Below are positions 27,134 to 46,237 of a stretch of 64,000 nt of DNA, in pieces. The translations under genes were made by a program, and so were the position numbers. Source of the stretch: Candidatus Roizmanbacteria bacterium CG_4_9_14_0_2_um_filter_38_17 (lineage in GTDB: Bacteria > Patescibacteriota > Microgenomatia > GCA-00278855); assembly GCA_002788855.1 (NCBI GenBank), contig PFSB01000021.1, positions 494 through 64,493 of the forward strand, read 5' to 3'. Below the pieces are notes generated by a model. That model was not told the DNA's origin. It worked only from the letters and a program-made list of their open reading frames with translations, and made no database searches. Each line of letters opens with the position of its first letter. Position 1 is the stretch's first letter.

Positions 27134-27671
27134 TCCCTCTAATTATATACGTTCCTGACCCTTCAATGCCACTTAAGCTTTTAGCCTCAATACTGGTTAT
27201 AGCTGTTAAATATGGCATATTTTCATAACTTTCCAGAAAACCTAATAGACTATCTATTTCTCCTGTAAAGCTAATGGTAAACGGTAAATAAGGATAACCA
27301 CTTCTATCTTTTAATGTTGATTGAGTCCCAAAGTTAAATTCTGGGCTACTTCCATACAAGCTCCCTAAATTTTCAACTACATCAACAAATTTAATAATAG
27401 AGCGTTCATCAGGATACAGCTCTAGTATCTTTTGATCTTCTCCTTGGTATTTTTCCAGCAACCCCGTGGCTATTTCTTTTTTATTCAATAGCGCTTTTGT
27501 TTGATCATGTACAGTTTTAGCACTCTGCACATCTTTCGCCTGTCTCAGCAATAGCGCAATAGATAACACAGTTCCCAACACCAAAAATAGACTTATGTAC
27601 ACACCTCGTTTAAGGACTGCTTTCACCCTCAGCACATTATTCGCTGTCAAATTTGTTGTACTATTATTCAC
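27108..27671 (-). CDS. Type IV pilus assembly protein PilO-like
   Basis: Single TM helix followed by a coiled-coil and ferredoxin-like periplasmic domain. Position downstream of pilMN. Confidence 0.5.
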   Translation of the reverse strand: MNNSTTNLTANNVLRVKAVLKRGVYISLFLVLGTVLSIALLLRQAKDVQSAKTVHDQTKALLNKKEIATGLLEKYQGEDQKILELYPDERSIIKFVDVVENLGSLYGSSPEFNFGTQSTLKDRSGYPYLPFTISFTGEIDSLLGFLESYENMPYLTAITSIEAKSLSGIEGSGTYIIRGNVYVSENF

Positions 27672-29133: not shown

Positions 29134-29348
29134 TAGCCCGCAAAATCACAAGATATTAATGAACTGGGAGCTGAGCATTAAATAGTCATTCGCTTTCGTC
29201 CAATAAAAAATATCATAGTTGATATGATAAGAGTTAGAGTTGCCACAATTAGAGACTATAGTCCCTCTATAAGAGATTCATATCCATCTCTAGGCTCAAA
29301 TAAAGGCTCTATTGCCACATAGAAAATGAAACCCTATAAATTCTAAAT

Positions 29349-29373
29349 GTGTCAAACGTCCAGCGTTTGACAC
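29349..29373. repeat. Perfect 10-bp-stem hairpin (gtgtcaaacg-tccag-cgtttgacac) adjacent to REP-C
   Basis: Shares the gtgtcaa/ttgacac half-site with the REP tail. Confidence 0.6.
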
Positions 29374-29394
29374 AGAAATAACTACTATATATAC

Positions 29395-29430
29395 AACCCA
29401 CTCCTGGAGTGGATTGAGTTGACACCTAGG
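29395..29430 (+). repeat. REP element copy C
   Basis: aacccactcctggagtggattgagttgacacctagg. Confidence 0.8.
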
Positions 29431-29524
29431 GATATCCATATCCCATACTCTATGTAGAAAAAAGTCTGATTAATATTAGAGAGCTTATTTGCAATCCCAT
29501 AAAAGGTCCAGCCTTTTATACTTC

Positions 29525-30895: not shown

Positions 30896-31542
30896 AAATT
30901 TGTTTTTAAGTTTCTCAACTGTACCCCCGAACTAAGCTCAGCATTCTGCGGAGCTCTACCTGGATTCACATTTACAATCAAAAACACCCGCATATACTTA
31001 GTATCTATTAATCTAAATTGTGTATCTAGTGGGTTTCCAGCACCTTTAAGCGGCCAGTCTCCATTGTAATAGTAAAAAATTGGCGCACTCCCACTCTGGA
31101 TATACTCTGCTACAACCCGGGTTGCTTCATCTTCTACTAGATACAAAACTGGTATATCATCAGTAGGGTTAATCGTTCCCTTCATCAAACTTGTGTTATC
31201 AAGATAATACCTCACCCTCTCAACACGATCATCGTTATCTACATCCGCATAAAATATAAATTCCTGGTCGTCAGCCAACTCTATTGTATAGCCTCCATCT
31301 TCAGCTGGCTGTGCTTCACGAATTTCCTTAACCATAACATCTATTCCACCACGCGCTTCTTCTACTGCTTGAATTTCAGCAAACGAAAAGCTATAGGATT
31401 CAGCAACAAATCGTTGCACTCCAGCAAGCGCAATTAAGACAACTGTGCTTATAAAGCCAGCAATTATTACTTCAAGTAATCCAAATCCTTTATTAAGGGC
31501 TCTACTTTTGATTAAGAATGATGGTTGTAAATACATCTTCAT
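30892..31542 (-). CDS. Minor pilin / pseudopilin (prepilin-type N-terminus)
   Basis: KGFGLLEVIIAGFISTVVLIALAG is a prepilin cleavage/methylation motif (G|F...E+5). Confidence 0.65.
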   Translation of the reverse strand: MKMYLQPSFLIKSRALNKGFGLLEVIIAGFISTVVLIALAGVQRFVAESYSFSFAEIQAVEEARGGIDVMVKEIREAQPAEDGGYTIELADDQEFIFYADVDNDDRVERVRYYLDNTSLMKGTINPTDDIPVLYLVEDEATRVVAEYIQSGSAPIFYYYNGDWPLKGAGNPLDTQFRLIDTKYMRVFLIVNVNPGRAPQNAELSSGVQLRNLKTNL

Positions 31543-32881
31543 TTATCTGGATTGAAGAGGTTGCATCTTCATATCCTGTTAAAGAAATAGTTAACTCATA
31601 GGCAGCTGCGTTTAGAGAATTAAAGAAAGCATGACCAAAATCTGGATCACCCTCATCACCTGATTCGATCGTTTCATCATAAGACAATAAACCATTAATA
31701 AGTCTAGCAGTTGAACTTGAAAGTGGAACATCTCCGCTATCTGCTACTAATACCAATAAACTACCGTCGCCCGGGCTATCAGGCGCTAAGCTGAGATCTA
31801 TACTCAGTTGTTCGTCAGCATTCAATCCGATGGGAAGCGCAGGATTACTTCCTGCCAAATCATAAGAAACATCAACTACTTCAAACATATAACTATCAAA
31901 TTCCATATTAGAGAAAGTATAAGTACCACCTGCATTTGTCGAAACTAACTCATCAAATTTATATATAGGAGATTCCGTCTCATCATTTCCAATTATTTTT
32001 TCTCCTCTGACTCTAAGCTCCACATTTGTTAATGTAGGAAAACCAGCTAAACGAGATCCATAGGTCTTAACTGTCAATGTAGATACTTTATCGATTGCGA
32101 AGCTAGCTTCAGAAACTTGCCCTTCCAACACAGTTATATGAGATTTAGAGGAATTAGTAACTTCCTCTGCGCCATAGGTACGATCAGACGAGTATCCAGC
32201 TTTAGTTACTATAATTTCATAACTTTCAATTGCGCTAGGTGCACCAGGTAAGATAACGCGACCAAACGAATCAGAAGTTATCGTTAAGTCCACTTGAGGA
32301 TTAACTGTTGAATTAACAATATTCACGTCTGCACCATTTAAGGGGTTTCCTTCTGAATTAAAGACTAACAGAGAGAGCGTTCCACCTCCATCATTTGTCT
32401 CGATCTCTTTTGGAACAATATCAGTTACTAAAACTACTGGCCTACGGCCCGATGCAAATGCCCCTGCCCACTCAAGTTTAACGCGGACTCGCTTATAATC
32501 CGTATTTACCAAATCAGCCGGCGCTTCCCCATCAAATGGATCGTCTACGTACGCAATTGTTGTTGTCACTTCAAATATAATTCCCCCTAAGGAAACTTGC
32601 TCAATTGGCGCAATTGGTCCAGCTGGGATACCTCCAACTGTTCCTAGATCCTCGTAACTAAGGTTTCTGGCTTCCTCTATCTTTTCATTTGCAAGTAGCC
32701 TCGCCGTATGTCGAACACGAGTCTGTCCGATGCTTTCAAAAACTAGCTGGGTGATTCCAAATAAACTGCCAGTTACAATCAAAAAAATTGCCATCCCCAC
32801 AACGGCCTCAATAATAGTAAACCCATTCCAGGAATGTGCTTCACATTCCTGGAATGGGTGCTTGTTGCTCATATTTATCAC
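31502..32881 (-). CDS. Large minor pilin (PilV/FimT-like) with extended leader
   Basis: Motif ...HSWNG|FTIIEAVVGMAIFLIV. The 24-aa leader contains the in-frame palindromic insert (FQECEAHSWN). Confidence 0.6.
   Translation of the reverse strand: MINMSNKHPFQECEAHSWNGFTIIEAVVGMAIFLIVTGSLFGITQLVFESIGQTRVRHTARLLANEKIEEARNLSYEDLGTVGGIPAGPIAPIEQVSLGGIIFEVTTTIAYVDDPFDGEAPADLVNTDYKRVRVKLEWAGAFASGRRPVVLVTDIVPKEIETNDGGGTLSLLVFNSEGNPLNGADVNIVNSTVNPQVDLTITSDSFGRVILPGAPSAIESYEIIVTKAGYSSDRTYGAEEVTNSSKSHITVLEGQVSEASFAIDKVSTLTVKTYGSRLAGFPTLTNVELRVRGEKIIGNDETESPIYKFDELVSTNAGGTYTFSNMEFDSYMFEVVDVSYDLAGSNPALPIGLNADEQLSIDLSLAPDSPGDGSLLVLVADSGDVPLSSSTARLINGLLSYDETIESGDEGDPDFGHAFFNSLNAAAYELTISLTGYEDATSSIQINEDVFTTIILNQK
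32823..32859. repeat. Perfect 17-bp inverted repeat with 3-nt loop (cccattccaggaatgtg-ctt-cacattcctggaatggg), intragenic
   Basis: Read from sequence. Second copy of the same element family at 53809..53843. Confidence 0.9.
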
Positions 32882-34083
32882 TATATCTGAAGGTCGCCAA
32901 TTAATTTATATATTGGTGCAATAATTGAAATCACTAACAATCCAACTAATATTCCAACCACCAACACTAAAATTGGTTCTATGACTTGGGAAATATTTTT
33001 TAAATCTGATTCTGCCTCCTCGGCATAATAAGCACCAACTTCCGCCAATACATCTTCAAGATTTCCACTCTTTTCACCAACTGTTAACATCTGCGTAATA
33101 AAGGAAGGGAATATTTTTGTCTCTTTGAGAATTCTAGAAAGTTCCACACCTTTTAATAATCTTTTGCGAAACATAGGAGCCATTGCTTTTAGCTTAGGTT
33201 GAGAAACTGTGCTCACTGCGATGCTGATCGCTTCGGTAATTGATACTCCACTTTTTAATAGAACACCTAATGTTCTTGTTAATCGCGCATAGTCAATGCG
33301 GCGAATAATCGATCCAGTTATTGGCATATTGGCGAGTAATCCATTTACCACTGTTTTCAACTTGTTTCTGGGCACAAGAAACCAGGCCAAAACCAAACCA
33401 ACAATTGTACTGGGAAGTATTATAAATAAATGTTCTTGCGTAAACTCACCTGCATTTAACATAATTAAAGTAGGCAAAGGTAGATCTATATCCATAGTCT
33501 TAAATACTCCACCAATACGTGGAAGCACAAACACAACTAAAACAAATCCCATCAGAATCAAAGCAATAAATATCACAATTGGATACACCATTGCTCCTTT
33601 AATATTGCGCTGCAGTTCATATTCAGAGCGCAATTTATCTGATAAATACGAAAATGCTTCCTCTAGCGTTCCACTTGCCTCTCCGGCCTTGATCATAGCT
33701 ATAAAAGCTTCATCAAAAACATTAGGATAACGTCCTAATATTTCAGATACTTTCTTGCCTGATTTTAAGCCATAGGCAAGATCGTTTAAGATTTTACGCA
33801 TGGTCGGATTTTTTGTATCTTCTGCTAATGAATCAATGCCTTGAGACATAGATAAGCCAGAAGCCAACATTAAGCTCATATATCTGGTAAAACTCGATTT
33901 ATCCAGTAAGGAAACACTACGCACAAAATCAAACTTCTTATTTTGCTTTCTTAACTTGATATAAATTGGGGTTAAACCTTTCTGAGAAAGTGCTAATCCA
34001 ACTTCTTCTTCGCTCTTTGCAGTTACGCTTGCTGTATTAATTGTCCCATCTTCTGATAAGGCACGATAGTCATAAGTAGGCAT
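32881..34083 (-). CDS. pilC: Type IV pilus assembly platform protein PilC (GspF family)
   Basis: Two GspF repeats with three TM helices. 400 aa. Confidence 0.8.
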   Translation of the reverse strand: MPTYDYRALSEDGTINTASVTAKSEEEVGLALSQKGLTPIYIKLRKQNKKFDFVRSVSLLDKSSFTRYMSLMLASGLSMSQGIDSLAEDTKNPTMRKILNDLAYGLKSGKKVSEILGRYPNVFDEAFIAMIKAGEASGTLEEAFSYLSDKLRSEYELQRNIKGAMVYPIVIFIALILMGFVLVVFVLPRIGGVFKTMDIDLPLPTLIMLNAGEFTQEHLFIILPSTIVGLVLAWFLVPRNKLKTVVNGLLANMPITGSIIRRIDYARLTRTLGVLLKSGVSITEAISIAVSTVSQPKLKAMAPMFRKRLLKGVELSRILKETKIFPSFITQMLTVGEKSGNLEDVLAEVGAYYAEEAESDLKNISQVIEPILVLVVGILVGLLVISIIAPIYKLIGDLQI

Positions 34084-34088
34084 CTTTT

Positions 34089-35771
34089 TTACTCACGCAT
34101 AACTCGCAAAACTTCTTCAATTGTTGTTACTCCAGCAGCCACCTGATCTAGTCCACTCATAAATAACGAGGTCATTCCTTTTGTCTTTGCCTTATTCTCA
34201 ATTTCCTTAGCAGAGACTTTGACCCGTATCAAAATACGCAAATCAGCATCAAGCTCTAACGCTTCATATATTCCCACTCGCCCTTTATATCCGGTACCAC
34301 CACACTCCAAGCAACCCTTACCCTTGTAAAATTCCTGCTTAGAAATATCCTCACCCGCCAGCTTTTCGATAAACTTCAACATCTCCACTGAAACTTTGGT
34401 TTTTTCCACACACGAAGGACAAATACCCCGCACTAATCGTTGAGCAATGACTAAGTTCAGCGTAGATGCAACTAAAAAAGGCTCTGCGCCCATGTCTATT
34501 AATCGAGGAATTGCTCCAGCTGCTGAATTTGTATGAAGAGAAGACAAAACCAAGTGACCCGTTAATGCTGAATGAATTGCCATATCAACAGTTTCTCTAT
34601 CGCGGATCTCTCCAACCATAATTATGTTCGGATCATGACGCAGTAGCGCGCGTAATCCCGAAGCAAATGTCAATCCCGTCTTCGGATTAACGTGTACCTG
34701 ACTTACTCTTTTAATTGCATACTCAACTGGATCCTCAACCGTGCAGATTTTAACTTTAATAGTATTTAGCATATTTAAGACACTGTAAAGTGTTGTGGTT
34801 TTACCTGATCCAGTTGGCCCTGTAACCAATATTAAACCGTGTGAACGCTGAATATTTTGTTTTAGAAGAACAAGACTGGAACCTGTTAATCCTAATTCTT
34901 CTAAGGAAAGAGGTCTAGCTGACTCCCTAAGAATACGCATAACAATGTTCTCACCATAAAAACTTGGCAGAATAGAAACTCTAAGTGAAATAATTTCATC
35001 ATCAGATTTAAACTTAAACCTGCCATCTTGAGGAACACGATGTTCATCAATTTTTAATCCTGATAATATCTTAATCCGAGCTACAACAGGCGGATGAAGA
35101 TCTGTGTTTAAAGTTATAACGTCTTTTAAAAACCCATCAACACGAAAACGCACAATAGACTCATCCTCTCCATGTTCTATGTGTATGTCAGAAGCACCCT
35201 CAGCCGTTGCGTACTCTAACAAAGTATCTAGGACTTTCACGACAGGTACATCAATAGCTGCTTTCTCTACGTCTTCTAATTTGGCGCGACTAGTCTTATC
35301 TGCATTTTTTTTAATTATTTCGCTAAATTCCTCATTAATATTCTTTTTATATGAGCCTAACGCTACATTTAGCTCGTCCGAAGTTACCAAGGTTGGTTCG
35401 ATAGAGTAACCGGTTTTCCGCTTAACAAACTCAATAGCTTCAAGATTACGAGGATCTTCCATTCCTAGCTTTAGTCTATTTTTAATTAACTCAAGTGGGA
35501 TTACACGGAAGTTACGAGCTGTAGTCTCTGGGAGCAAAGCGAGCATCTCTTCTGAGACTCTTTTTTTTTGCAATGAGTAGTAAGGAACCTTAAAATGCTC
35601 AGCCACCAACTTACCAAGTATCTCGTCAGAAAGTAATCCTTTAAATACCAGGGTCTCTGAAAGGGGCATGCCTAGTTCAGAGGAAGATAAAGCCGCAGCA
35701 GCAAGCTTATCTTGGTCGACATATTTCGACTCTTCAACAATCTCCTTAATTAGCTTATCGGGCAGACGCAT
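34089..35771 (-). CDS. pilB: Type IV pilus assembly ATPase PilB (GspE family)
   Basis: Walker A GPTGSGKTTTL, Asp/His boxes and a tetracysteine motif (CPSC...CLEC). Confidence 0.85.
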   Translation of the reverse strand: MRLPDKLIKEIVEESKYVDQDKLAAAALSSSELGMPLSETLVFKGLLSDEILGKLVAEHFKVPYYSLQKKRVSEEMLALLPETTARNFRVIPLELIKNRLKLGMEDPRNLEAIEFVKRKTGYSIEPTLVTSDELNVALGSYKKNINEEFSEIIKKNADKTSRAKLEDVEKAAIDVPVVKVLDTLLEYATAEGASDIHIEHGEDESIVRFRVDGFLKDVITLNTDLHPPVVARIKILSGLKIDEHRVPQDGRFKFKSDDEIISLRVSILPSFYGENIVMRILRESARPLSLEELGLTGSSLVLLKQNIQRSHGLILVTGPTGSGKTTTLYSVLNMLNTIKVKICTVEDPVEYAIKRVSQVHVNPKTGLTFASGLRALLRHDPNIIMVGEIRDRETVDMAIHSALTGHLVLSSLHTNSAAGAIPRLIDMGAEPFLVASTLNLVIAQRLVRGICPSCVEKTKVSVEMLKFIEKLAGEDISKQEFYKGKGCLECGGTGYKGRVGIYEALELDADLRILIRVKVSAKEIENKAKTKGMTSLFMSGLDQVAAGVTTIEEVLRVMRE

Positions 35772-35815: not shown

Positions 35816-36202
35816 TTAAGTTGAGCTTGGCAAATGCTTATTAACTGCATCTAGCACATCTTGTGGATCGCTATGTGATTTAGAGATAAAATCAGTGGCA
35901 CCCTTATCCATGGCCTCTTTTTGTTTATCTTCAGAGTCCAGGTTGCTATATATTATCACTGGAGCTTTATTTCCAGCTTTATTTAATGCCTCAAGTACTC
36001 CTAATCCTCCTAACCTAGGCATCATCAAATCCAGCAAGATAATATCGGGCTTGTATTCTTTAACTTTATCCAATGCAGTAGAGCCATCAGTAGCTACAGC
36101 TAATTCTAAACCTTTACTATGAAAAAAAGTGGTGTAAATATTAACCAATAATGGATCATCCTCTACTAATAGAATTTTAGTCATGGTTTTTCTCAAACTC
36201 AA
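35816..36202 (-). CDS. Single-domain response regulator (CheY-like receiver)
   Basis: ILLVEDD...DIILLDLMMP receiver motifs. No output domain. Confidence 0.75.
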   Translation of the reverse strand: MSLRKTMTKILLVEDDPLLVNIYTTFFHSKGLELAVATDGSTALDKVKEYKPDIILLDLMMPRLGGLGVLEALNKAGNKAPVIIYSNLDSEDKQKEAMDKGATDFISKSHSDPQDVLDAVNKHLPSST

Positions 36203-36381: not shown

Positions 36382-36762
36382 TTATTTAAGTACTAAAGCT
36401 ATCTTTTCTAAAAACTGATCTGGGGTAAGATCTGACTTAATTAGATGACTTTCAACACCTAGTTTTTTCCCTTCACTTAATGTCTTGTCTTCACCTAGAT
36501 TTGTCATAAATATTATATGCTTATTGGGTTGTTTGGGAGTATTTTCAGATAACTTTATCATCACCTGCATTCCATCCATCTCAGGCATGATGATATCCAA
36601 AAGCACCAAGTCATATCCCCCTTTGCTCATTTTTTTATACCCCTCTATACCATTCTGACCCCAATCAACCTTATATCCCTCATCTGTTAACAACTCAACA
36701 TACAGATCACGGATAAACTGATCGTCCTCAACAACGAGAATTCTATGTTTTTTATCCACCAT
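36382..36762 (-). CDS. Single-domain response regulator (CheY-like receiver)
   Basis: ILVVEDD...DLVLLDIIMPEMDG receiver motifs. Confidence 0.75.
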   Translation of the reverse strand: MVDKKHRILVVEDDQFIRDLYVELLTDEGYKVDWGQNGIEGYKKMSKGGYDLVLLDIIMPEMDGMQVMIKLSENTPKQPNKHIIFMTNLGEDKTLSEGKKLGVESHLIKSDLTPDQFLEKIALVLK

Positions 36763-37013: not shown

Positions 37014-37406
37014 ATGAATACGTTTGGATTTTGGTTACTACCTCCAAAGAATATTCAAGCTGAATATCAAGAAATAATCGATAAATATAGTAAGAAACTA
37101 GATAGCCCATCATTTGAACCACATATTACTGTCTTAGATGTGGTAACGGGTGATAAGGAAGATATAATTCAAAAAGTTAAAGCAGTTGTTTCAACATATA
37201 AGTCAATTCATATTGCGTTTACAGATATCTCAATAAGCACCACTTATCATCATGGAGATATTTCATCATCAGAAAAAAGCAAGATTGCTGATGAGATTAC
37301 ATTAAACACCACTAACTTTAAGGCAGATAGATTATGTATTGTTAATGCTGATAACCTAGATCCAAAAACTTGGCTTCATGTATCAGAGTTTGAACTGAGC
37401 AATTAA
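37014..37406 (+). CDS. 2H phosphoesterase superfamily protein (LigT / cyclic phosphodiesterase-like)
   Basis: Two H-x-T/S-x motifs, PHITVL and LHVSEF, ~100 aa apart in a 130-aa protein. Confidence 0.55.
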   Translation: MNTFGFWLLPPKNIQAEYQEIIDKYSKKLDSPSFEPHITVLDVVTGDKEDIIQKVKAVVSTYKSIHIAFTDISISTTYHHGDISSSEKSKIADEITLNTTNFKADRLCIVNADNLDPKTWLHVSEFELSN

Positions 37407-37560: not shown

Positions 37561-39708
37561 CTATACTTTGGCAACCGGGACTGTAAACAAAAAGGTAGAG
37601 CCTTTACCCGCTTCCGACTCTATCCATATCTTTCCTCCATGCATTTCAATAATCTGCTTAGAAACATATAATCCCAGACCAGTTCCTCCAACTTCCGCCA
37701 TGGCAGTATACGAGCTTTCTACTCTGCCAAATTTCTTAAATAGACGTTTTTGGTCAGACTTACTTATCCCTGTGCCTGTATCTCGCACATCAACTACAAT
37801 AAACTTACCCCGTTTAATAAAACCAACGGTAATTGATCCACCCTTAGGTGTAAACTTTAACGCATTACTAATAAGATTATCCATAACCTGATAAATCTTG
37901 TCATGGTCAACAAACACAAACGGCATTTTTTTCTTTTGAACCGTTAGCCTAACTTTCCGCTCATGCGCTCTACCAATTAGCTCATGCATGCTCTCATTAG
38001 CTAGCTCAACAATATCTATTTTTTCTTTATTAATTTCAAATCGATTTCCTTCGATTCTAGATACATCGAGCATATCGTTAACCAAATTTATTGTTCTCTG
38101 AGTAGAAACATATGCTCTATTTAAATGATCAGTTCCTTTTTTACCTAGATTTTTTCCGCTCTTATTGAGAACCATCCATAAATAACTCTTGACAGCCGTC
38201 ATTGGGGTTCGGAGCTCATGACTTGTTATGGAGATAAATTCATCTTTAATCTTATCAAGATCCCTAAGTCTCTTATTCGCACCCCGTAGGTTGGAAGTAG
38301 CTTCTTCTATCTCCTTTTTTAACTTTATATTAAACTGCTTTATTTCTTCATAAGCTCTGGCATTATCTATAGCTACTGAGATCTGGGGACCTATTATCTC
38401 CAACACATTAATATCTTCACTGGTATATACATCACCAGAGGCTTTGTCTCCTAATATTAAAGCGCCAATTACCACCCTTTCTGCAATTAATGGGACCACC
38501 ACACTAAACTCATTCTTCCGCATAATCTCCTTAACCCCTCCTTCATCTAGTTCGTCAAAGACTAATACATTTGAGCCTTTATTCGGTCCAGCTGCAATAA
38601 GCTTTTTTATATCATTAGCAACTAATTTTGACTTATTACTACCAACTGTTAACGACCAATCTACTCTCGAACCCTTTACAAGCACTATAGTTGCATTGGT
38701 AGCTTTCAGATTAGATTCCATCTGATCCAACACCCCCTGTGATAGACCTGTCAGGTCATACGTTGACGCCATAAGCCTCCCAAGCTTTCCAAGTAAATGA
38801 TTTACATCATACCTATCTCTATAAAATAATTTATCCGTTGCTCGCTCCAATCGACGACGTAGTGGCTGAAACGTAAACGCCATAACAAGTGCTAATAAGG
38901 TCGAAGTAATTAAATTTACACTTGAAGAAGGTTCCCTGGTAATAAAATTACCAACTACAAACAAACCTAACGCATATAAACCGCCTAGAATAGTTATTAA
39001 TAAGGAGTATGCCACAGATCTAGCAACTATTAGTCGAATATCTAAGAACCTGTGCTTGACTATTGCATAACCCACAAAACTTACAAAAAATAAAGTATAA
39101 AGCGGTAGTAGTCCAACAAACTGTGTATTATTAAAAAGTATAACAAATAACATATTACTAATGAGTATTGACATAAACATTAATATCGCACCAAGTAAAA
39201 ATAATTTAAGCTGAATTTTTTGTCTCCCAGATAACTTGAGATATTTTCTAATCAGCACAAATATAGCTCCACCAATAAAAAAAACAGTGTGAGCAACAAA
39301 TAACAACATACCTATCCCAGGAATCGGTTGCGTTGTATTCTTTTCTACCCCACTAAACACCAGATTCATCTGAACAAGTGGCAACAAGACCACAGTCATT
39401 GTTATCAGCAATATTACATATACTTTCTGTATAGGGAATCTTGCATACGGAAAAGTAGTAGCTAATAAAAAGAAAAATAGGTTAATAACAAGTGCAATTG
39501 TCATCACCTGTTTTATCCAGAAAAAAGTTTCTGCATCGGATGATTGATGAAGAGCAAAGTAGTTAAATAAAAGATAAAAACTTATTGAAACTGCAAAAAG
39601 AAAAAACATCCTACTCGTTGTACTTCTGGGATTCTTATAATAGGTTACTAATCCTATTGCCGAGTTTCCAACAAACGCAATTACGACTATGAGCAGATCA
39701 AGCAGCAT
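37561..39708 (-). CDS. Multi-TM sensor histidine kinase with GAF-like and HisKA/HATPase_c domains
   Basis: About eight N-terminal TM helices. H-box ITSHELRTPMTAV. G-boxes DTGTGI and GGTGLGLYVSKQIIEMHGG. Start set to internal Met MLLDLL to avoid an 80-bp overlap; the ORF track start is 39798. Confidence 0.75.
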   Translation of the reverse strand: MLLDLLIVVIAFVGNSAIGLVTYYKNPRSTTSRMFFLFAVSISFYLLFNYFALHQSSDAETFFWIKQVMTIALVINLFFFLLATTFPYARFPIQKVYVILLITMTVVLLPLVQMNLVFSGVEKNTTQPIPGIGMLLFVAHTVFFIGGAIFVLIRKYLKLSGRQKIQLKLFLLGAILMFMSILISNMLFVILFNNTQFVGLLPLYTLFFVSFVGYAIVKHRFLDIRLIVARSVAYSLLITILGGLYALGLFVVGNFITREPSSSVNLITSTLLALVMAFTFQPLRRRLERATDKLFYRDRYDVNHLLGKLGRLMASTYDLTGLSQGVLDQMESNLKATNATIVLVKGSRVDWSLTVGSNKSKLVANDIKKLIAAGPNKGSNVLVFDELDEGGVKEIMRKNEFSVVVPLIAERVVIGALILGDKASGDVYTSEDINVLEIIGPQISVAIDNARAYEEIKQFNIKLKKEIEEATSNLRGANKRLRDLDKIKDEFISITSHELRTPMTAVKSYLWMVLNKSGKNLGKKGTDHLNRAYVSTQRTINLVNDMLDVSRIEGNRFEINKEKIDIVELANESMHELIGRAHERKVRLTVQKKKMPFVFVDHDKIYQVMDNLISNALKFTPKGGSITVGFIKRGKFIVVDVRDTGTGISKSDQKRLFKKFGRVESSYTAMAEVGGTGLGLYVSKQIIEMHGGKIWIESEAGKGSTFLFTVPVAKV

Positions 39709-39718
39709 AGAACCATTA

Positions 39719-40762
39719 TTACATCTTAGATAGCAGTTGAGCAACATCCCTACGAGGACTATGGTGAGGTGAGTTATTTGAATAGCCCATTCTAGCAAAG
39801 AAAGTAGGACTCATTTCTATGCCCAACATCTTCATTAACTTAGTGCGAACCTTTTTATATTCAATCATTCCACTAAAAGGAGCAGTTCCTATTCCTTCAA
39901 TTAAAAAAGCTAATGTTAAAAACGAATACAACTTTCCTGTCTTAAGCCAACCAACTTTATCATCCATAGCAGAGCTAATAACTAACAACCCCGTAGAGTT
40001 TAATACCATCCTTCGCTCCATATTAGCTTGAATAGATGGATTAGTTAGCTTTATTAGATATGGAGCAAATAACGAAATAATTCCTGGAACTCCAAATCCA
40101 GATAAAGGCATTCCATCGAATTTTTTTGTATTATTAGGCCTAACCCAGGTTGATAATTCTTCCTTGAATATTGTATCTCTAAATGCAAACATAATTGCTT
40201 TATATACTAGATCTGCAGCTTTCTCTATATCTCTCTTGCTAGTTACAATTCCTAGCGAAACACCACTATCTTTGAATCTTGACCTTAGTTTATCTATAGT
40301 TTGCACATTTAACTGCTTATCCTCATATACACCTCTATCCGTTGATCTCTTGGTAATTACAGAGAACATATCGCTATATAAAGATTTTGTCGTCCGTTTA
40401 GTAAGAAATAACTCAACCGCTACTCCATTTAATCTAGACTCTGGCAAATATTCAATTCTTACATGAAAGCCAAAATAGTCTGCCGCAACTAATAGATTAC
40501 CTAAAGCACATCCTAAGCTTATATAAAGTTCTCTATTTTCTCTATCAGAGTAATATAACGATCTTTCTAAATCTGGCAACAGTTGAATAGATTCTTTTGT
40601 TATTTCAAATCTCCAAGGTTGCGTATTGTGACTATTTGGAGCAAGGATTGCATATCGTATCAAAAATTCAGCTTTATCCATAAATTTTCCACCAATTGGA
40701 AAATTCTTAAGATCTACCTCCCATGGTAAATATGGATTTGTAATATTATTTTTCCTCATCAT
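39719..40762 (-). CDS. Two-domain nitroreductase-family flavoprotein
   Basis: APNSHNTQPWRFEI is the nitroreductase FMN-binding signature. ~340 aa suggests a tandem nitroreductase fold. Alternative start MDKAEF at 40681. Confidence 0.6.
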   Translation of the reverse strand: MMRKNNITNPYLPWEVDLKNFPIGGKFMDKAEFLIRYAILAPNSHNTQPWRFEITKESIQLLPDLERSLYYSDRENRELYISLGCALGNLLVAADYFGFHVRIEYLPESRLNGVAVELFLTKRTTKSLYSDMFSVITKRSTDRGVYEDKQLNVQTIDKLRSRFKDSGVSLGIVTSKRDIEKAADLVYKAIMFAFRDTIFKEELSTWVRPNNTKKFDGMPLSGFGVPGIISLFAPYLIKLTNPSIQANMERRMVLNSTGLLVISSAMDDKVGWLKTGKLYSFLTLAFLIEGIGTAPFSGMIEYKKVRTKLMKMLGIEMSPTFFARMGYSNNSPHHSPRRDVAQLLSKM

Positions 40763-41801
40763 TTTTCTGCAAAACTAATTCTAGCTGCTTAATTAATGTA
40801 TTTCTCTTTTTTATATTCTTTTCCAACTTATAATCCGAAACCAACAGATCATCTAAAGATAAGTAATATCGACCACTAATAACTTTCTCCCCAAGAATTA
40901 TTTTTTTTATGGTAGTCGTAATTAGTCCTCCTGCAATAGTAGCTGTTGCTCCTAATTGTGGCCAAGTAGATATTGAACCATTTATTGCAAATAATGACTT
41001 ACTCATCCTCTCTGAATTTCCTTTTAAACCAACAAGTTTGATAATCATTTTTCTCAAAATAACCTCATCGTTTGTTTGTAGTATAGTATAAATATCTTCT
41101 TGGGAAAGTCTGCCTAAAAATGGCACAGTATTCACATCAAGATCGTACCTCTCAATATTCATAATTACATTATCACCAACATCAGCCACGGTGATAATAG
41201 GTATCTTCCTATCTCTAGCAATTCTACGAAGAATTATTTTTGCATGTAGATTATCAACTTCATCTACAATTAAGTCAGCACCTGTATTATCCCTTATAAA
41301 GGGTTCAATTTTTGATGCATCACGTTCCATATGTTTGTAGATTTTTGTATATGGATTCATACCAATTATCCTATCTTCAACATAATCTACTTTTCTAACA
41401 CCTAAATCATTCCACAGAGCCTGAATTCTATTAAGATTAGTAGCATCAATCCTATCGTAATCAGCAATCTTTATAGCATCGGGTCTTGCCTGCATAGCCC
41501 ACGTAATTGCTGCATGACTACCAACGCTCAAACCAAAGAAAGCAACCACTGTTTTTCTTAAAACATCTTGCTCGTCTGGAAATATTAGATTTTTATTACG
41601 TGAGGTAGTTAAATCTAGAAAAGCTTTTTTCGGCAAAAATGTATCTTTCCTTCCTTTTAATATGGTTTCTTTTTTTACCTGACTTGAAACTTGATTTTTT
41701 AAGTTTTGAAATATATCTTGTTTAAAATCCAGATGTGGATTTCTAACCTTATATAACTCCTTAAGAAGCTTGTTAAATAAATCTTTTTTTGACTTAGACA
41801 T
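40746..41801 (-). CDS. ThiF/MoeB/E1-like adenylyltransferase family protein
   Basis: VVAFFGLSVGSHAAITWAMQARPDAIKIADYDRIDATNLNRI matches the Rossmann ThiF signature (GxGxxG variant, D-x-D, NLNRQ-like). Confidence 0.6.
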   Translation of the reverse strand: MSKSKKDLFNKLLKELYKVRNPHLDFKQDIFQNLKNQVSSQVKKETILKGRKDTFLPKKAFLDLTTSRNKNLIFPDEQDVLRKTVVAFFGLSVGSHAAITWAMQARPDAIKIADYDRIDATNLNRIQALWNDLGVRKVDYVEDRIIGMNPYTKIYKHMERDASKIEPFIRDNTGADLIVDEVDNLHAKIILRRIARDRKIPIITVADVGDNVIMNIERYDLDVNTVPFLGRLSQEDIYTILQTNDEVILRKMIIKLVGLKGNSERMSKSLFAINGSISTWPQLGATATIAGGLITTTIKKIILGEKVISGRYYLSLDDLLVSDYKLEKNIKKRNTLIKQLELVLQKNDEEK

Positions 41802-41804
41802 AAT

Positions 41805-43298
41805 TTAGGCTGTTTTAATGAATTTATGTCTCGAAAAATATTCTTTATCTTCGTGTTCATGAAGAACAATAACTGGCTTAACCTTATCACCTAATTCGTT
41901 CAATACATATCTATATTCACTGTTTCTTTTACTAAGTTCTTCAACAAATATGTCCTTTATTTTTAAAACCATATTTTTAGCTCCTAAATTACCTTTTAAT
42001 AACTCAACCCTACAGTACAAAACGGGATTATTATTTTCATCGTCTATTATTTCAAGCTTAAATCTACCAGTAATATAATCTTTAAGATGCTTATGGTCTA
42101 GTGCGTATTGAACATGCTCTGTATAGACATTTGCACCATAAATCTTAACCATAAATTTATCCCTACCATATAAATATACATAAGGTAACTGCCATTTAGA
42201 TGTACATAGCTGCTTCTGGTTTCCACTAGGAAAAAAATTAGATAAATCTTTTGCACTAATTACTCCACCTTCATCTTTAATGTTATAGCGAATAAGAGGG
42301 CAACCATAATTCTTAGTAATAACTAATTCATTATTCTCTTGTTGGAAAAAAATCAATCTTGGATCAAAATTATATATGGATGGTATACGGTTTGACTTAA
42401 ATATCTCACTTGTTAATTGTTGGTTATCAGTAATTATTTTTCTATAATAAATTGAGCTTGGAGACTCAAAACCCATTAGGGCCGCATCTGCAGATCCATA
42501 TAGATTTATAAATGTATGGTAAATATTATCTGATCCTACTTTTTCAATAATATGCTCGCGCCATCTTTCTGTTATTGCTTGACCAGTTCCTAAAAGTCTC
42601 AATGACAACTTATTAAGCTGTATGCCCCTATTTATGCATTCATCTATAACATCTTTTAAAAACTGCGTATGACCAGTTAAAATTATTTGTTCGAAAGCAT
42701 CAGCCACATTTGTTAACACTTCAATTACTGCGTCCGTTGAATATCCTGGAGACATTAATGTTAGTGGGTAACCTTTCCATGAAACTAAATTCACAACAGC
42801 AGAAGTAAATGTTCCAGCTATCCAATTTCCCATAGCAAACCCATTAATTAGTAACGTTCTTTTTTGGCCTACATTTAGTAAGGTATTAAAAATTAACTCA
42901 TGCAAATAAGCACCTTCTATCTCAGAAGATAAATTACGTGGCCAAAAAATAGGCACGCCTGTAGTACCTGAACTAGTAGATATAATATGCATTTGATCCA
43001 AATTACCATCCCAACACCTAGTTTCCACATCATACTTCTGAACATAATTATCTTTATCAGTTTGTGGAACCTGTTGGTAGTTACTTATAGTCTTAACCAA
43101 TTGAGGATTGATCTTGTTTTTCTTTAAAAAATTCTTATAAGCTGGAACTCTTATCGCAGCTTCATGAAAAAGTTTCAGGGTATGCTTTTTGGATTGTACT
43201 TGAAGATTTGACGCACTCTGTAAATTGGTATCAGCATAAAAACTTCTGTCATTAATCCATTTGGTGAACAGTGTGCTATTTTTTCCTTTCGAAATCAT
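41805..43298 (-). CDS. Adenylate-forming enzyme, PaaK / coenzyme F390 synthetase-like
   Basis: ISTSSGTTGVPIFWP is an SSGTTG P-loop of the ANL superfamily, PaaK-like subgroup. 4-bp gap to the upstream lyase gene. Confidence 0.6.
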   Translation of the reverse strand: MISKGKNSTLFTKWINDRSFYADTNLQSASNLQVQSKKHTLKLFHEAAIRVPAYKNFLKKNKINPQLVKTISNYQQVPQTDKDNYVQKYDVETRCWDGNLDQMHIISTSSGTTGVPIFWPRNLSSEIEGAYLHELIFNTLLNVGQKRTLLINGFAMGNWIAGTFTSAVVNLVSWKGYPLTLMSPGYSTDAVIEVLTNVADAFEQIILTGHTQFLKDVIDECINRGIQLNKLSLRLLGTGQAITERWREHIIEKVGSDNIYHTFINLYGSADAALMGFESPSSIYYRKIITDNQQLTSEIFKSNRIPSIYNFDPRLIFFQQENNELVITKNYGCPLIRYNIKDEGGVISAKDLSNFFPSGNQKQLCTSKWQLPYVYLYGRDKFMVKIYGANVYTEHVQYALDHKHLKDYITGRFKLEIIDDENNNPVLYCRVELLKGNLGAKNMVLKIKDIFVEELSKRNSEYRYVLNELGDKVKPVIVLHEHEDKEYFSRHKFIKTA

Positions 43299-44978
43299 CT
43301 ACGATAATTCTGAAAAAACATTATCTATCACTACCGAATTAAAGGAATTAGACTCAATAAGTGAATAAATCTGCTCAATCTCACCGCCTAGAGACCTTTC
43401 TATATCCAAGTATTTTACATTCTCCCTGATAAAATTATATACTGGTCTTGTTCTTGGAGATAATAACTTTGGACCTCCACGTAAATCAACTGCTTGCGCT
43501 ACTGCTATTAAATTTTGTGCTAATGAATATCTTGCTATTTTCAAATTCTCAAGGCCTAATATTCCAGATGTTAAAGAATGCGCAGTAATGTCCTGATTTC
43601 TCTCTTCATGTACACCAAACATCGTGCTAACTGGAAATGACAATAAAGTTGAATAGATATCAAACATACCCGACTGGATCTGCACACCTTTAAACGCACA
43701 CCCCGTAATGGCTTTTTTATCAGAAAGATTTGGTGGTAAACCATTATTTTCACTAGGATCAATTAACCTAGCTAAATGTCTATCGTTAAGTTTCGTTATT
43801 TGAGTCATAATTTTGCGTAAACTATCCATCGCATCAACCATATGCATTGCTAAGAAATTGCCACCACTTACCCAGTGCCAGGGATCCTCACCTTCTACAG
43901 CGTACTCGGGTGCAACCCAGAGAGGGTTATCAGATACTGAATTCGCATTGACCGTTATTACATCCAAGATCTGTTTTATCTTCTCGACATTAACCCCTTG
44001 ATATTGTGCTGCTCCTCTGAGACTATATCCATCCTGAACTTTTCTACCTCTAGGTCGTTTTTTATGCTCCTTCATTTCCTGGTATGCAAGTCCACTCCCA
44101 TTAAGTAGATATCTATACAAACCAGCAACTTCTTTTTGCCCAGCATGGGGACGCACATCACTCAATAAAGGATGAAAAGATCTATCTGATCCTTCAAGAA
44201 CTTCTACCATCATTGCTCCAGTAACAATTGAAAGTAACAGTGCACTAAGCGTATCAACGGCGAGAAGAGCTGCTAATGCAGTTGAAAAATTATCACCATT
44301 AACCAATCCTAATCCTACTTTAGGATCTAATCGCAAGCTCTTAATGCCTGCTTTAGATAAAGCTTCTTTCGCTAATCTCTCTTTCCCAGATTTATCCATA
44401 ACCATAGCTCCAGGTAGCTGTCTCAACACACTCAATACTCGTGCATTATGTGCTAGATCACCAGAAGCACCTATTCCTCCGTATTGATTAACTACCGGCG
44501 TAAGATGTTTATTCAGCGCATCTCCGTATAGTTTTAAATCTGCCAATTTAACCCCACTAACACCATTCATTAACATGTTAATCCGAATAAGCATTGCTCC
44601 ACGTACTACATCCGCAGAGAATTTTGGACCCACTGATACATCAACATGAACAATTCCTTCAGATATCTTCTTAGCAATATTTACACGGGCTTCCGAAGAT
44701 CCATTAGTTAGCACTCTACCTGCTTGCCCTCCATACCCAGTATTGCATCCGTACACTGGTACACCTTGCTTAACATCGCTCATCATGTGCTCATAACAAG
44801 TAGTTATTCTGGATATAACTTCTTGGTCATCAGTTAAAGATACTTTTTTTCCCGATCTGGCAACAGCAACTACATCATTAATCTGCAAGCCCTGACCTGA
44901 AATAACAACTTTTTTGGAAGACTTAAATAATTCAGAGCTTATTTCAAAAAGACTTTTATTTGTGTATGAATCTTGCAT
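43299..44978 (-). CDS. MIO-dependent aromatic amino acid ammonia-lyase / aminomutase (HAL/PAL/TAM family)
   Basis: GGIGASGDLAHNARV contains the Ala-Ser-Gly triad that forms the MIO cofactor. Family-typical length (559 aa). Confidence 0.8.
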   Translation of the reverse strand: MQDSYTNKSLFEISSELFKSSKKVVISGQGLQINDVVAVARSGKKVSLTDDQEVISRITTCYEHMMSDVKQGVPVYGCNTGYGGQAGRVLTNGSSEARVNIAKKISEGIVHVDVSVGPKFSADVVRGAMLIRINMLMNGVSGVKLADLKLYGDALNKHLTPVVNQYGGIGASGDLAHNARVLSVLRQLPGAMVMDKSGKERLAKEALSKAGIKSLRLDPKVGLGLVNGDNFSTALAALLAVDTLSALLLSIVTGAMMVEVLEGSDRSFHPLLSDVRPHAGQKEVAGLYRYLLNGSGLAYQEMKEHKKRPRGRKVQDGYSLRGAAQYQGVNVEKIKQILDVITVNANSVSDNPLWVAPEYAVEGEDPWHWVSGGNFLAMHMVDAMDSLRKIMTQITKLNDRHLARLIDPSENNGLPPNLSDKKAITGCAFKGVQIQSGMFDIYSTLLSFPVSTMFGVHEERNQDITAHSLTSGILGLENLKIARYSLAQNLIAVAQAVDLRGGPKLLSPRTRPVYNFIRENVKYLDIERSLGGEIEQIYSLIESNSFNSVVIDNVFSELS

Positions 44979-45066
44979 TAATATATTGGGCTCACAATAA
45001 TCCCATAAGTTTAACAGTTTTAGTGCGTATCGTCAACGTTTTTTCCAACTGCTTGGACAATATTAT

Positions 45067-45102
45067 AACCCACTCCTGGAGTGGGTTAGGTTGACACCTC
45101 GG
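45067..45102 (+). repeat. REP element copy D
   Basis: aacccactcctggagtgggttaggttgacacctcgg; overlaps last 4 codons of pyrD (..EVST*). Confidence 0.8.
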
Positions 45103-46237
45103 GATAATTACTATTTTCACCAATTGCCTCTGAAATTGAGTCGTATCCATCCTTTTCTAACAACTCCACCAACCCTTGATTAATTTCACTGATTACCTGA
45201 GGGCCTTGGTAAATCATACCCGTTATTAACTGAATGAGCGATGCACCCGCTTTTATTTTCTTATAGGCATCCTCTGCTGTAAACACCCCACCACAACCAA
45301 TAATCACCAACTTACCCTTGGTCTTATTGTATACATACTTAATTAGCTCGTCGGATAAATCCTTCACAACCTTTCCACTCATTCCTCCTTTATCTGGGAT
45401 ATTAGCATCTTTTATATTGGGATTGTTTCTAACTTTCGTCAAATTAGATATAACCAATCCATTTACTCGGTGATTAGCTACTACTTTTAATAATTCATCT
45501 ATTTCTTTTTTAGCAAGATCTGGAGACAACTTCACAAACACTGGTTTATTTACTTTAATCTTATCCAGTTCGGCTAATAATAGCCTAAGTCTTTTAGCAT
45601 CTGTAAAAGGTTCCCCTCCATACGCATTTGGACAGCTAATATTAACTGTTATATAACTTCCAATATTCACAAACACACTAAACGCTTTTGCATAATCTTT
45701 TATACCTGCCTTCGTAGAAACAGTTTTTTTGTTATTAGTCTTAGCTACACTAATTCCGATTGGAATCTTAAACCGCATATTTTTAAGCTTTGCAGATAAA
45801 ATTTGGCACCCCTTATTCTTTAATCCGTAATAAACTACAAGCGCCTTAGAATTAGGCAATCTCCAGAGCCTTGGCTTTGGATTACCGTCACAAGACTCAC
45901 CTGTAATTGAACCAACTTCCGCAAATCCAAACCCCACTGAAGGCAAGATCTGAGTAAGCTGGGCATCCTTATCAAAACCAGCGGCTAAGCCAACAGGATT
46001 AGAAAAATAAATGCCCAGTATGATTTGCGATAATTTTGGATTACTATAGCTAAATAGAAGATTGGTAATGGATCTTGTTAAAGAGAATTTCCCCAATAGC
46101 TGACCAACCTTTATCAGCTGATCGTGAACATCCTCCGGATCTAGTTTAAAAAACACCGGTTTTATAAAACTCCGATACACAAAACCAATAATTATATTTC
46201 TTAACTGCATATACACTACAACGTTAAGATAATACAT
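45086..46237 (-). CDS. pyrD: Dihydroorotate dehydrogenase (class 2-like with N-terminal extension)
   Basis: NPVGLAAGFDKD, catalytic region and GGMSGKVV FMN/substrate motifs. Confidence 0.8.
   Translation of the reverse strand: MYYLNVVVYMQLRNIIIGFVYRSFIKPVFFKLDPEDVHDQLIKVGQLLGKFSLTRSITNLLFSYSNPKLSQIILGIYFSNPVGLAAGFDKDAQLTQILPSVGFGFAEVGSITGESCDGNPKPRLWRLPNSKALVVYYGLKNKGCQILSAKLKNMRFKIPIGISVAKTNNKKTVSTKAGIKDYAKAFSVFVNIGSYITVNISCPNAYGGEPFTDAKRLRLLLAELDKIKVNKPVFVKLSPDLAKKEIDELLKVVANHRVNGLVISNLTKVRNNPNIKDANIPDKGGMSGKVVKDLSDELIKYVYNKTKGKLVIIGCGGVFTAEDAYKKIKAGASLIQLITGMIYQGPQVISEINQGLVELLEKDGYDSISEAIGENSNYPEVST

Follow-up and report, generated by a model that had tools for sequence, protein, structure and literature searches.

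We analysed a 64,000-nucleotide stretch of DNA (the window) from contig PFSB01000021.1 of the Patescibacteria genome Candidatus Roizmanbacteria bacterium CG_4_9_14_0_2_um_filter_38_17, and focused on an operon of four minus-strand genes. They encode an ammonia-lyase with a 4-methylideneimidazole-5-one (MIO) cofactor, a PaaK-like adenylating ligase, a ThiF-like enzyme and a tandem-nitroreductase flavoprotein (Table 1). Lyase and ligase genes abut with a gap of 0 nucleotides (nt), 3 nt separate the ligase from the ThiF-like gene, and the latter overlaps the flavoprotein gene by 17 nt. Profile and structure matches agree with all four gene identities proposed in a preliminary description of this DNA, which also had the coordinates, strand and tight packing right. 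The operon is followed by a HisKA_7TM histidine kinase, two receiver-only response regulators and the pilus genes pilB and pilC. We propose that these genes supply the enzymes of a cassette conserved in Patescibacteria, whose general make-up is deaminase, PaaK-like ligase, ThiF cyclase, flavin oxidase and seven-transmembrane (7TM) kinase, and that the enzymes make an oxazolone-type compound which is the ligand of the kinase. To this reading as a whole we assign a probability of roughly 0.45.

Table 1. Genes and sites of the cassette and its surroundings, in window coordinates
Feature	Position	Strand	Remarks
MIO lyase	43299-44978	minus	559 amino acids
PaaK-fold ligase	41805-43298	minus	497 amino acids
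ThiF-like enzyme	40746-41801	minus	351 amino acids
Acg-family tandem-nitroreductase flavoprotein	39719-40762	minus	347 amino acids
HisKA_7TM-GAF-HisKA-HATPase kinase	37561-39708 (ATG) or to 39798 (TTG)	minus	Pfam domains
Receiver-only response regulator	36382-36762	minus	PF00072 at residues 8-120 of 126 amino acids; without output domain
Second receiver-only response regulator	35816-36202	minus	PF00072 at residues 10-120 of 128 amino acids
PilB, type IV pilus ATPase	34089-35771	minus	T2SSE and MshEN, E 2e-127
PilC, platform protein	32881-34083	minus	T2SSF, E 1.5e-57
Continuation of the pilus cluster	26561-32881
Quinone-dependent (class 2) dihydroorotate dehydrogenase, pyrD	45086-46237
Open reading frame in the kinase/receiver gap	37014-37406	plus	130 amino acids
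Promoter-like site upstream of the lyase gene	45008-45036	minus	TTGACG-17-TAAACT and extended TG; weak evidence

The ammonia-lyase

The lyase matches PF00221 with an E-value of 8e-109. The motif GIGASGDL contains the ASG cofactor triad, and the Tyr, Asn, Tyr and Arg of the catalytic site are kept (PVYGCNTGYG, NGD and DGYSLR). Judged by its sequence, the protein is an MIO aromatic amino acid ammonia-lyase of a distinct and highly conserved clade, whose members are 57–67% identical over more than 120 clusters and which is set apart by the motif NGDNFS and an 8-residue insertion before SGGN. The best NCBIfam model is phenylalanine ammonia-lyase (PAL), and among solved structures the cyanobacterial PALs are closest; the score stays below the cutoffs of all models, including every tyrosine ammonia-lyase (TAL) model.

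Comparing the lyase with the histidine ammonia-lyase (HAL) of Pseudomonas (sequence checked against PDB 1B8F) reveals NQD in place of Q413-E414-D415. Because Glu414 of this motif is replaced by Gln, the enzyme is not a histidase. The HutH models give 258–281 bits against cutoffs of 524–539, and neither hutU nor hutI was found among the window genes neighbouring the cassette.

The selectivity switch known from RsTAL-His89 and AvPAL-Phe107 aligns with a His (followed by Val) in the window lyase, with a 7-residue length difference nearby and by a rule derived from other MIO clades. Given this His, Tyr is the predicted substrate and the enzyme a predicted TAL with 4-coumarate as its product. The position is occupied by His in 12 of 13 loci with a lyase of the window type (Leu in locus L054), by Phe in the non-Patescibacteria orthologue of locus L087 and by Ala in that of L086.

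The PaaK-fold ligase

The ligase matched no Pfam family, and its profile matches to PaaK (1e-8) and FlxY (1e-7) are weak. TIGR02155, the PaaK model, yields 33.8 bits against a cutoff of 646, and no paa genes occur in the cassette context. To place the protein we relied on an AlphaFold (AF2) model with a predicted local distance difference test score of 89.6. The top Foldseek neighbours of this model are PaaK1 (E 6e-25, template modelling (TM) scores of 0.68/0.78), BT_0428, AjiA1, a PaaK-family AMP-ligase (PDB 6SIX) and ClxA. Ligase and PaaK family thus share the fold (E-values of 1e-19 to 6e-25, TM-scores of 0.6–0.78) and the conserved adenylation motifs, whereas sequence identity is 14–16% and the window ligase is about 70 residues longer. 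The motifs of the ANL superfamily are conserved, namely the P-loop TSSGTTG, YGSAD, GR and the C-terminal Lys495. As modelled, the ligase is a PaaK-fold adenylating enzyme of this superfamily. Its family comprises about 1000 representatives at 50% identity (E<=1e-30) and has no Pfam model. AjiA1 and ClxA are CoA-independent coupling enzymes of the PaaK family (CoA, coenzyme A).

Beyond the Patescibacteria, homologues of the ligase also occur without the other cassette genes. There they adjoin signalling or conflict-type proteins, such as an nSTAND1 NTPase-WD40 protein in Nocardia (L056:5914-9843), a Ser/Thr kinase and a WD40 protein in Dolichospermum (L029:6824-9786) and a caspase-domain protein in Cryptosporangium (L051:11094-13163). 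A Ser/Thr kinase and a TPR protein likewise stand beside the ligase homologue of L086 (L086:1-2327). The ligase-only contexts in Actinomycetota, Chloroflexia and cyanobacteria are mixed (STAND-WD40, Ser/Thr kinase, caspase, alpha-2-macroglobulin) and do not clarify the chemistry.

The ThiF-like enzyme and the flavoprotein

Oxazolone synthetases have been demonstrated experimentally for OxzB of Pseudoalteromonas rubra (bioRxiv 10.1101/2020.06.11.147165), for TyzB/TyzC of Mycobacterium tuberculosis (PMC10404671) and for TrzS, which is Rv1355c (PMC12856293). In these systems an acyl-CoA N-acyltransferase makes an N-acyl aromatic amino acid, a ThiF part cyclises it with ATP, and a flavin-dependent oxidase (FDO) desaturates it with O2 (PMC12856293, PMC10404671).

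The ThiF-like protein of the window matches PF00899 and, far more specifically, the Rv1355c family NF005901 (E 2.8e-54 over model positions 80–349); the next-best ThiF family reaches 1.6e-14. At locus L054, ThiF and flavoprotein are fused, and the cyclase domain of this fusion shares 31% identity (E 3e-42) with the window protein. The fusion protein scores 720 bits on NF005901, with a cutoff of 476, and adjoins orthologues of the window lyase and ligase. Conserved features include GxSxG, D114, D116, NLNR, K137 and D183, the last of which is probably equivalent to Asp217 of TrzS, the adenylation Asp. We therefore regard the protein as a putative ATP-dependent cyclase, the counterpart of the N-terminal half of Rv1355c/TrzS. 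It contains no Cys, MoeB models match it at about 1e-8 to 1e-9, and no ThiS/MoaD or molybdopterin genes were found among the neighbours. The nearest solved sequences are PaaA (E 3e-7) and TcdA, with E-values of 1e-6 to 1e-7. Some Joint Genome Institute annotations hint at TcdA (tRNA ct6A), a candidate that we rejected, as its model gives 31 bits against a cutoff of 304.

The flavoprotein passes the cutoff of the Acg family NF047509 (232.6 bits, cutoff 199), and its alignment with the Acg structure 2YMV (3e-12) runs over the full length. It contains the motif HNTQPWR and also matches the C-terminal part of Rv1355c (E 8e-19). It is thus a likely Acg-family oxidase dependent on flavin mononucleotide (FMN), presumably acting as a Cα/Cβ desaturase. 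Across the cassettes this slot is filled by two FDO subfamilies: the Acg/Rv3131 type is found in the window, L007 and L009, and the FDOs of L001 (10519-11610) and L085 (11051-12154) resemble the C-terminal half of TrzS (179–193 bits on NF005901).

Taken together, the match of the ThiF-like protein to the N-terminal half of Rv1355c, the Acg-type flavoprotein next to it and the fused orthologues beside the same lyase and ligase suggest that the two window proteins are a split version of an Rv1355c/TrzS-family oxazolone synthetase. The mycobacterial Acg/Rv2032 and Rv3131, 'nitroreductases' of the DosR regulon (FDO-B), are stand-alone genes, whereas the Acg gene of the window is in an operon with a ThiF cyclase. 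This arrangement, together with the fusion of the two in L063, suggests a desaturase role for the Acg branch of FDOs as well.

Conservation of the cassette in Patescibacteria

A pattern scan of one genome per species yielded 80 loci with ligase homologues, which were annotated with profiles built from the window proteins. We classed 66 of them as Patescibacteria-type; they represent Microgenomates, Saccharimonadia, Paceibacteria, Parcubacteria lineages, Doudnabacteria, Berkelbacteria and others. About 49 of the 66 carry titles that name the Candidate Phyla Radiation (CPR) explicitly. Nine are titled Gammaproteobacteria or Pseudomonadales, and we take these to be mislabelled bins on grounds of synteny and similarity. 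Homologues of the window ligase, ThiF and lyase bear the names Daviesbacteria, Woesebacteria, Gottesmanbacteria and Roizmanbacteria, which places the window in the Microgenomates.

Gene content was counted in the 43 Patescibacteria-type loci whose flanks measure 4.5 kb or more on each side (the full-flank set). The ligase is accompanied by ThiF in 42/43 of these loci, by a HisKA_7TM kinase on the same strand in 41/43 and by an FDO flavoprotein in 33/43; a receiver gene adjoins the cassette in 21/43. Dozens of independent genomes carry this set of genes, far more than chance would produce. The preliminary description had considered the operon out of place in its genome and not recognisable as a ribosomal-peptide (RiPP/TOMM) or phenylpropanoid cluster. 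Among cassettes without a housekeeping role it is instead one of those kept most widely in the Patescibacteria classes, and it can be recognised by its oxazolone-synthetase lineage.

A deaminating enzyme stands beside the ligase in 32/43 loci. This is an MIO lyase in 17, a ScyB-like ELFV dehydrogenase in eight and a HisC-like aminotransferase in seven, and never do two of them occur together. The best match of the dehydrogenase is the tryptophan dehydrogenase ScyB, with 287 bits compared with 74 bits for glutamate dehydrogenase. All three enzymes remove the amino group and leave a carboxylic acid, which is an arylacrylate or an arylpyruvate; the latter, in its enol form, is an alpha-hydroxy-arylacrylate. 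The MIO lyases stem from three or more independently recruited subfamilies (that of the window, one resembling the FlxA TAL and a third). All have His in the switch region and none is a HAL. The FlxA-TAL-like lyases, found in Saccharibacteria-type cassettes, score 610–623 bits on the flexirubin TAL model FlxA, with a cutoff of 700. In several cassettes that have neither lyase, dehydrogenase nor aminotransferase, a conserved Rossmann-fold protein with the motif GGAGLIGS and no assigned family is encoded divergently to the ligase (all on the minus strand: L017:6151-7896, L023, L026:8797-9915, L038:8707-9843, L061, L063:8339-9874 and L083). It may be a fourth acid-supplying enzyme.

Gene fusions connect steps of the pathway. 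ELFV dehydrogenase, ligase and ThiF form one protein in L036 and P0275, and ELFV dehydrogenase and ligase are joined in P0375. Ligase and ThiF are fused in both orders, as ligase–ThiF in P0272 and as ThiF–ligase in P0267 and L027, which argues that the two handle consecutive intermediates. ThiF is fused to the flavoprotein in L023, L054, L063, L086 and L087.

Locus L087 belongs to a non-Patescibacteria genome with a guanine-plus-cytosine (GC) content of 62%. Its lyase, 62% identical to that of the window, is followed by a ThiF–FDO fusion, an N-acyl amino acid synthase of the FeeM type and a classical AMP-binding ligase. This set of genes would constitute the canonical route, in which the acyl donor, here an aryl acid, is converted to its acyl-CoA, then to an N-acyl amino acid and finally to the oxazolone. 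No FeeM-like or AMP-binding reading frame was found in the 64-kb window or in loci L001-L084. Since CoA ligase and FeeM in L087 stand where a single PaaK-like ligase stands in the CPR cassettes, we infer that this ligase forms the amide itself. That it is a direct amide synthetase, joining an aryl acid and an amino acid to an N-acyl amino acid, is a tentative assignment, with chances slightly short of even.

Outside the Patescibacteria the cassette is also present in L085, from an 8.8-Mb non-CPR genome, with a hybrid kinase of the PAS type downstream. The non-Patescibacteria loci L054 and L086 showed no kinase within the flanks that were inspected, and the cassette of L087 likewise lacks one. 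The enzymes therefore do not need a kinase as a substrate and can act as an autonomous module.

Aminoacyl-tRNA synthetase genes were also seen near the cassette. A class I synthetase of the Tyr/Trp type (tRNA-synt_1b and S4) lies within about 7.5 kb in 9/43 full-flank loci from several classes, and a class II (D/K/N-type) synthetase is nearby in 7/43 (synthetase genes in L010, L026, L037, L038, L040, L044, L052, L053, L059, L068 and L075). This proximity could reflect conserved housekeeping synteny or hint at the amino acid partner.

Kinase, receivers and pilus genes

The start of the window kinase is more likely the ATG at 39708, 10 nt after the flavoprotein stop, than the TTG, which would create an 80-nt overlap with the flavoprotein gene. 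A HisKA_7TM domain is present in every kinase examined. GAF is absent from about half of them, a class of ~540 amino acids. The preliminary description had suggested that the GAF kinase senses the product of the operon. The link to the kinase has held up well, but the assignment of GAF as the sensor is weakened because half the kinases lack it; the constant module is HisKA_7TM. Conserved residues of this 7TM module, as they occur in the window kinase, are N79, K96 (Arg in most relatives), Q196 and Y244.

PilB/PilC genes adjoin the cassette in 12 further loci (L002, L004, L006, L008, L012, L026, L038, L063, L065, L073, L078 and L081). By our estimate, such adjacency is several times more frequent than would be expected by chance in a genome of about 1 Mb. 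In two of these loci (L065:14733-16496 and L073:16228-17961), PilB follows the kinase and a receiver gene, and its N-terminal region is replaced by a receiver domain (about 110 bits). Such a fusion would give a phosphorelay direct input into the pilus motor. The type IV pilus motor is thus the probable output of the kinase pathway. In the window, the pilus cluster runs on past PilC with a CarboxypepD_reg-domain protein, a PilM-like protein, a LytR_C-domain protein and two proteins without a family match.

Surroundings of the cassette

The source genome is low in GC (about 36%). GC content is 0.32–0.34 across the ThiF and ligase genes (40001-44000) and about 0.36–0.40 in the flanks. We considered a recent horizontal island and rejected it: the dip is mild (from about 0.37), and the cassette is kept across classes with an identity that drops with taxonomic distance, which argues for long residence.

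The pyrD gene lies 108 nt upstream of the cassette. In a marine Patescibacteria locus, too, a class 2 dihydroorotate dehydrogenase gene immediately precedes the cassette (L036:6266-7375); such a quinone-linked enzyme is odd where respiratory chains are believed to be absent. Between the kinase and first receiver genes, a gap of 800 nt contains a plus-strand reading frame that weakly matches PF07823 (cyclic phosphodiesterase/2H-phosphoesterase, 6e-7). The match covers part of the profile only, and the frame is possibly a remnant. A scan for promoters and terminators gave site counts in the region that were not above those of shuffled controls.

Discussion

A model for the pathway

Based on homology and gene context, we propose the following chemistry. 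The MIO lyase would strip ammonia from an aromatic amino acid, turning Tyr into 4-coumarate. The ligase would then adenylate coumarate and join it to an amino acid through the latter's amino group, yielding an N-coumaroyl amino acid with neither CoA nor a separate acyltransferase. By homology with TyzB and TrzS, the ThiF enzyme would adenylate the carboxylate of the amino acid and close a 5(4H)-oxazolone ring. Finally, the Acg-type FDO would desaturate the Cα/Cβ bond, giving a conjugated arylidene oxazolone or a ring-opened N-acyl dehydro-amino acid; this step is modelled on TyzC and TrzS, though these belong to a different FDO branch. In lineages without an FDO, the pathway would end at the saturated oxazolone. 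We consider oxazolone-type chemistry somewhat better supported than not.

The product could then be the ligand of the co-transcribed HisKA_7TM kinase, which would phosphorylate the receiver-only regulators and so act on the adjacent type IV pilus motor. The near-constant presence of a 7TM kinase on the same strand, the receiver-only regulators, the adjacency of PilB/PilC, the receiver–PilB fusions and the kinase of L085 make a pairing of synthase and receptor the most economical reading. That the product is the kinase's signal is nonetheless a cautious suggestion, which we hold a little less firmly than that of amide formation by the ligase. The locus is, in our opinion, a new version of the oxazolone pathway whose front end is fed by amino acids and independent of CoA, probably within a pilus-controlling signalling unit. 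The most complete form of the model is a self-contained Patescibacteria signalling circuit, in which a dedicated 7TM receptor kinase perceives an aryl-acyl oxazolone or dehydro-amino acid synthesised without CoA and switches type IV pili. The signal would be of a new class, built from one or two aromatic amino acids, and the kinase would work through receiver-only proteins and, in some lineages, through a receiver domain fused to PilB. In all its parts, this model appears rather unlikely.

Comparison with known systems

The overall architecture of the cassette is reminiscent of OxzAB, TyzACB and TrzAS (Rv1356c/Rv1355c), which all combine a ThiF-like ATP-dependent cyclase with an FDO of the nitroreductase superfamily, adjacent or fused. 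However, the window has a PaaK-fold ligase in place of the acyl-CoA N-acyltransferase, and its acyl group is predicted to be an aryl acid generated in situ from an amino acid rather than a fatty acyl-CoA. Further differences are the Acg-type FDO and the coupling to a 7TM kinase. The hosts of the known systems are Proteobacteria or Actinomycetota, whereas those of the window cassette are Patescibacteria.

The front end also resembles FlxA/FlxY of flexirubin biosynthesis and the TAL/p-coumaroyl ligase (pCL) pair of photoactive yellow protein (PYP), where an MIO tyrosine ammonia-lyase feeds an adenylating ligase, and the window ligase is weakly FlxY-like. In contrast to these, the window has no polyketide machinery and no PYP-like Cys acceptor, ThiF and FDO act downstream, and the lyase forms a separate clade.

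In the Vibrio systems LuxM/LuxN and CqsA/CqsS, the gene for an autoinducer synthase lies beside that for a polytopic membrane histidine kinase without a large periplasmic domain. The pairing of synthase and polytopic kinase is the same here; the enzyme families are unrelated. The output in Patescibacteria would apparently be receiver-only proteins and the pilus motor, not transcription. The authors of the TrzS study noted that oxazolones resemble acyl-homoserine lactones (PMC12856293).

We found no prior description of the cassette in the searchable literature on Patescibacteria/CPR genes, pili, oxazolones and signalling. For HisKA_7TM, this literature offered reviews of archaeal kinases only and nothing relevant, and the papers on Saccharibacteria genetics and pili that we consulted do not mention the cassette genes.

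Points against the model

Several observations weigh against the proposed pathway and its link to the kinase. At the front end, lyases and aminomutases are indistinguishable by sequence, and the His rule for the switch was established in other MIO clades, whereas the clade of the window is unusual around the active site. We know of no PaaK-family enzyme that makes N-acyl amino acids. The N-acyltransferase of the OxzA/TyzA/TrzA type, the defining partner of known oxazolone systems, was found neither in the operon nor elsewhere in the 64-kb window, nor in loci L001-L084. The window flavoprotein is of the Acg (FDO-B-like) type and not of the TrzS/TyzC type. Desaturation by known FDOs requires O2, and many Patescibacteria inhabit anoxic water. 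With the flavoprotein missing from 10/43 loci and the deaminase from 11/43, the final product must differ between lineages. Regarding the signalling half, adjacency of the kinase indicates functional coupling and is no proof that the product is its ligand, and pilus genes are adjacent in just about 15–20% of the loci. Lastly, the titles of about 17 of the 66 Patescibacteria-type loci are uninformative or conflicting.

Alternative explanations

The strongest competitor accepts the same chemistry and holds that the product is an effector (it might be antimicrobial, aimed at a host, protective under stress or part of the membrane), while the kinase senses something else and is co-inherited. This is unlikely in our judgement but deserves to be kept in mind. 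N-acyl dehydrotyrosines of Planctomycetes are antimicrobial, oxazolone loci of Mycobacterium are tied to stress, and the cassettes outside the Patescibacteria that lack a kinase (L054, L086, L087) would suit an effector. The physiological role of bacterial oxazolones is itself "a major unresolved question" (PMC12856293). However, the same-strand kinase is more tightly linked to the cassette than either the flavoprotein or the deaminase, and, being a polytopic sensor in the membrane, this conserved partner would suit a ligand that is hydrophobic. Moreover, the adjacent regulators are receiver-only and, for want of a DNA-binding domain, cannot act as simple activators of the operon.

Alternatively, the ligase could be a plain aryl-CoA ligase that provides coumaroyl- or cinnamoyl-CoA to an acceptor elsewhere, with ThiF and flavoprotein working on an unrelated substrate, or with an unlinked acyltransferase. 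Its nearest structures, PaaK1 and BT_0428, are genuine CoA ligases, and pairs of TAL and ligase that proceed through a CoA thioester exist (FlxA/FlxY, with weak-to-moderate similarity to both window proteins). The genome was viewed over 64 kb only. Yet no acyltransferase is present in the 66 cassettes or the window, the ligase is fused to ThiF in both orders, and in L087 it takes a CoA ligase and FeeM jointly to replace the single ligase. We consider this alternative improbable.

The preliminary description had left the choice between a small-molecule and a peptide-modification pathway, and only the former has stood. Under the latter, ThiF would adenylate a peptide or protein C-terminus in the manner of MccB/PaaA, and the nitroreductase-fold protein would oxidise a heterocycle as SagB does in pathways for thiazole/oxazole-modified microcins (TOMMs). 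Nitroreductase-fold dehydrogenases do occur in TOMM pathways, PaaA is the nearest solved sequence to ThiF, and MccB/PaaA and TcdA share with it the E1-like adenylation fold and the activation of a carboxylate followed by intramolecular cyclisation. However, the three gene junctions leave no room for a precursor gene, no YcaO was found among the neighbours, and ThiF, which lacks a peptide-binding domain, matches the Rv1355c family better than any other ThiF family by some 40 orders of magnitude. No small reading frame was seen inside the cassettes; the flanks were not systematically searched for conserved ones. The flavoprotein is of the Acg/FDO and not the SagB type, and the fusion of a deaminase to ligase and ThiF indicates free substrates derived from amino acids. 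The analogy to MccB, PaaA and SagB therefore gives way to the lineage of OxzB, TyzBC and TrzS, which act on free N-acyl amino acids, and we give modification of a peptide very little credence.

Equally far-fetched is the supply of a chromophore to a photoreceptor kinase, with the product attached covalently as in PYP. The combination of TAL-like lyase, ligase and sensor kinase does recall pyp-tal-pcl loci, the predicted product is conjugated and coloured, and L085 has a PAS kinase. But the window kinase contains no Cys, which excludes a covalent chromophore of the PYP or phytochrome kind, and no conserved Cys column exists among 53 kinases, half of which lack GAF. A conserved Schiff-base lysine is unlikely because position 96, Lys in the window, is Arg in most kinases. 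Many carriers, furthermore, come from dark groundwater.

Ordinary primary metabolism, that is, HutH-type histidine degradation and MoeB/ThiF-type sulfur-carrier activation adjacent by chance, is echoed in some source annotations (histidine ammonia-lyase, molybdopterin/thiamine adenylyltransferase) and had been flagged at the outset as something to check, but its probability is negligible given the HutH scores and the Gln at Glu414, the absence of hut genes nearby, a Cys-free ThiF without ThiS/MoaD neighbours that matches MoeB at about 1e-9 and Rv1355c at 3e-54, and a synteny kept across classes.

Implications

The stripped-down genomes of Patescibacteria typically lack most biosynthesis, yet many classes keep this four- to five-gene pathway, in which the conversion of an aromatic amino acid to a specialised heterocycle would cost two ATP or more as well as a flavin. 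It is wired to one of the few two-component systems of these cells and often to type IV pili, the organelle for finding and holding hosts. Regulation of pilus extension and retraction in Patescibacteria is an acknowledged open question (PMC12206443). The cassette joins this question with that of the role of oxazolones and makes both testable. In addition, our model predicts that a large branch of PaaK enzymes, so far without annotation, has the new activity of making N-acyl amino acids directly, and it suggests a possible function for Acg-type flavoproteins, which are also unexplained in M. tuberculosis. If true, the circuit would be the first dedicated cell–cell or symbiont–host signalling system in the Patescibacteria radiation and would assign a first physiological role to natural oxazolones.

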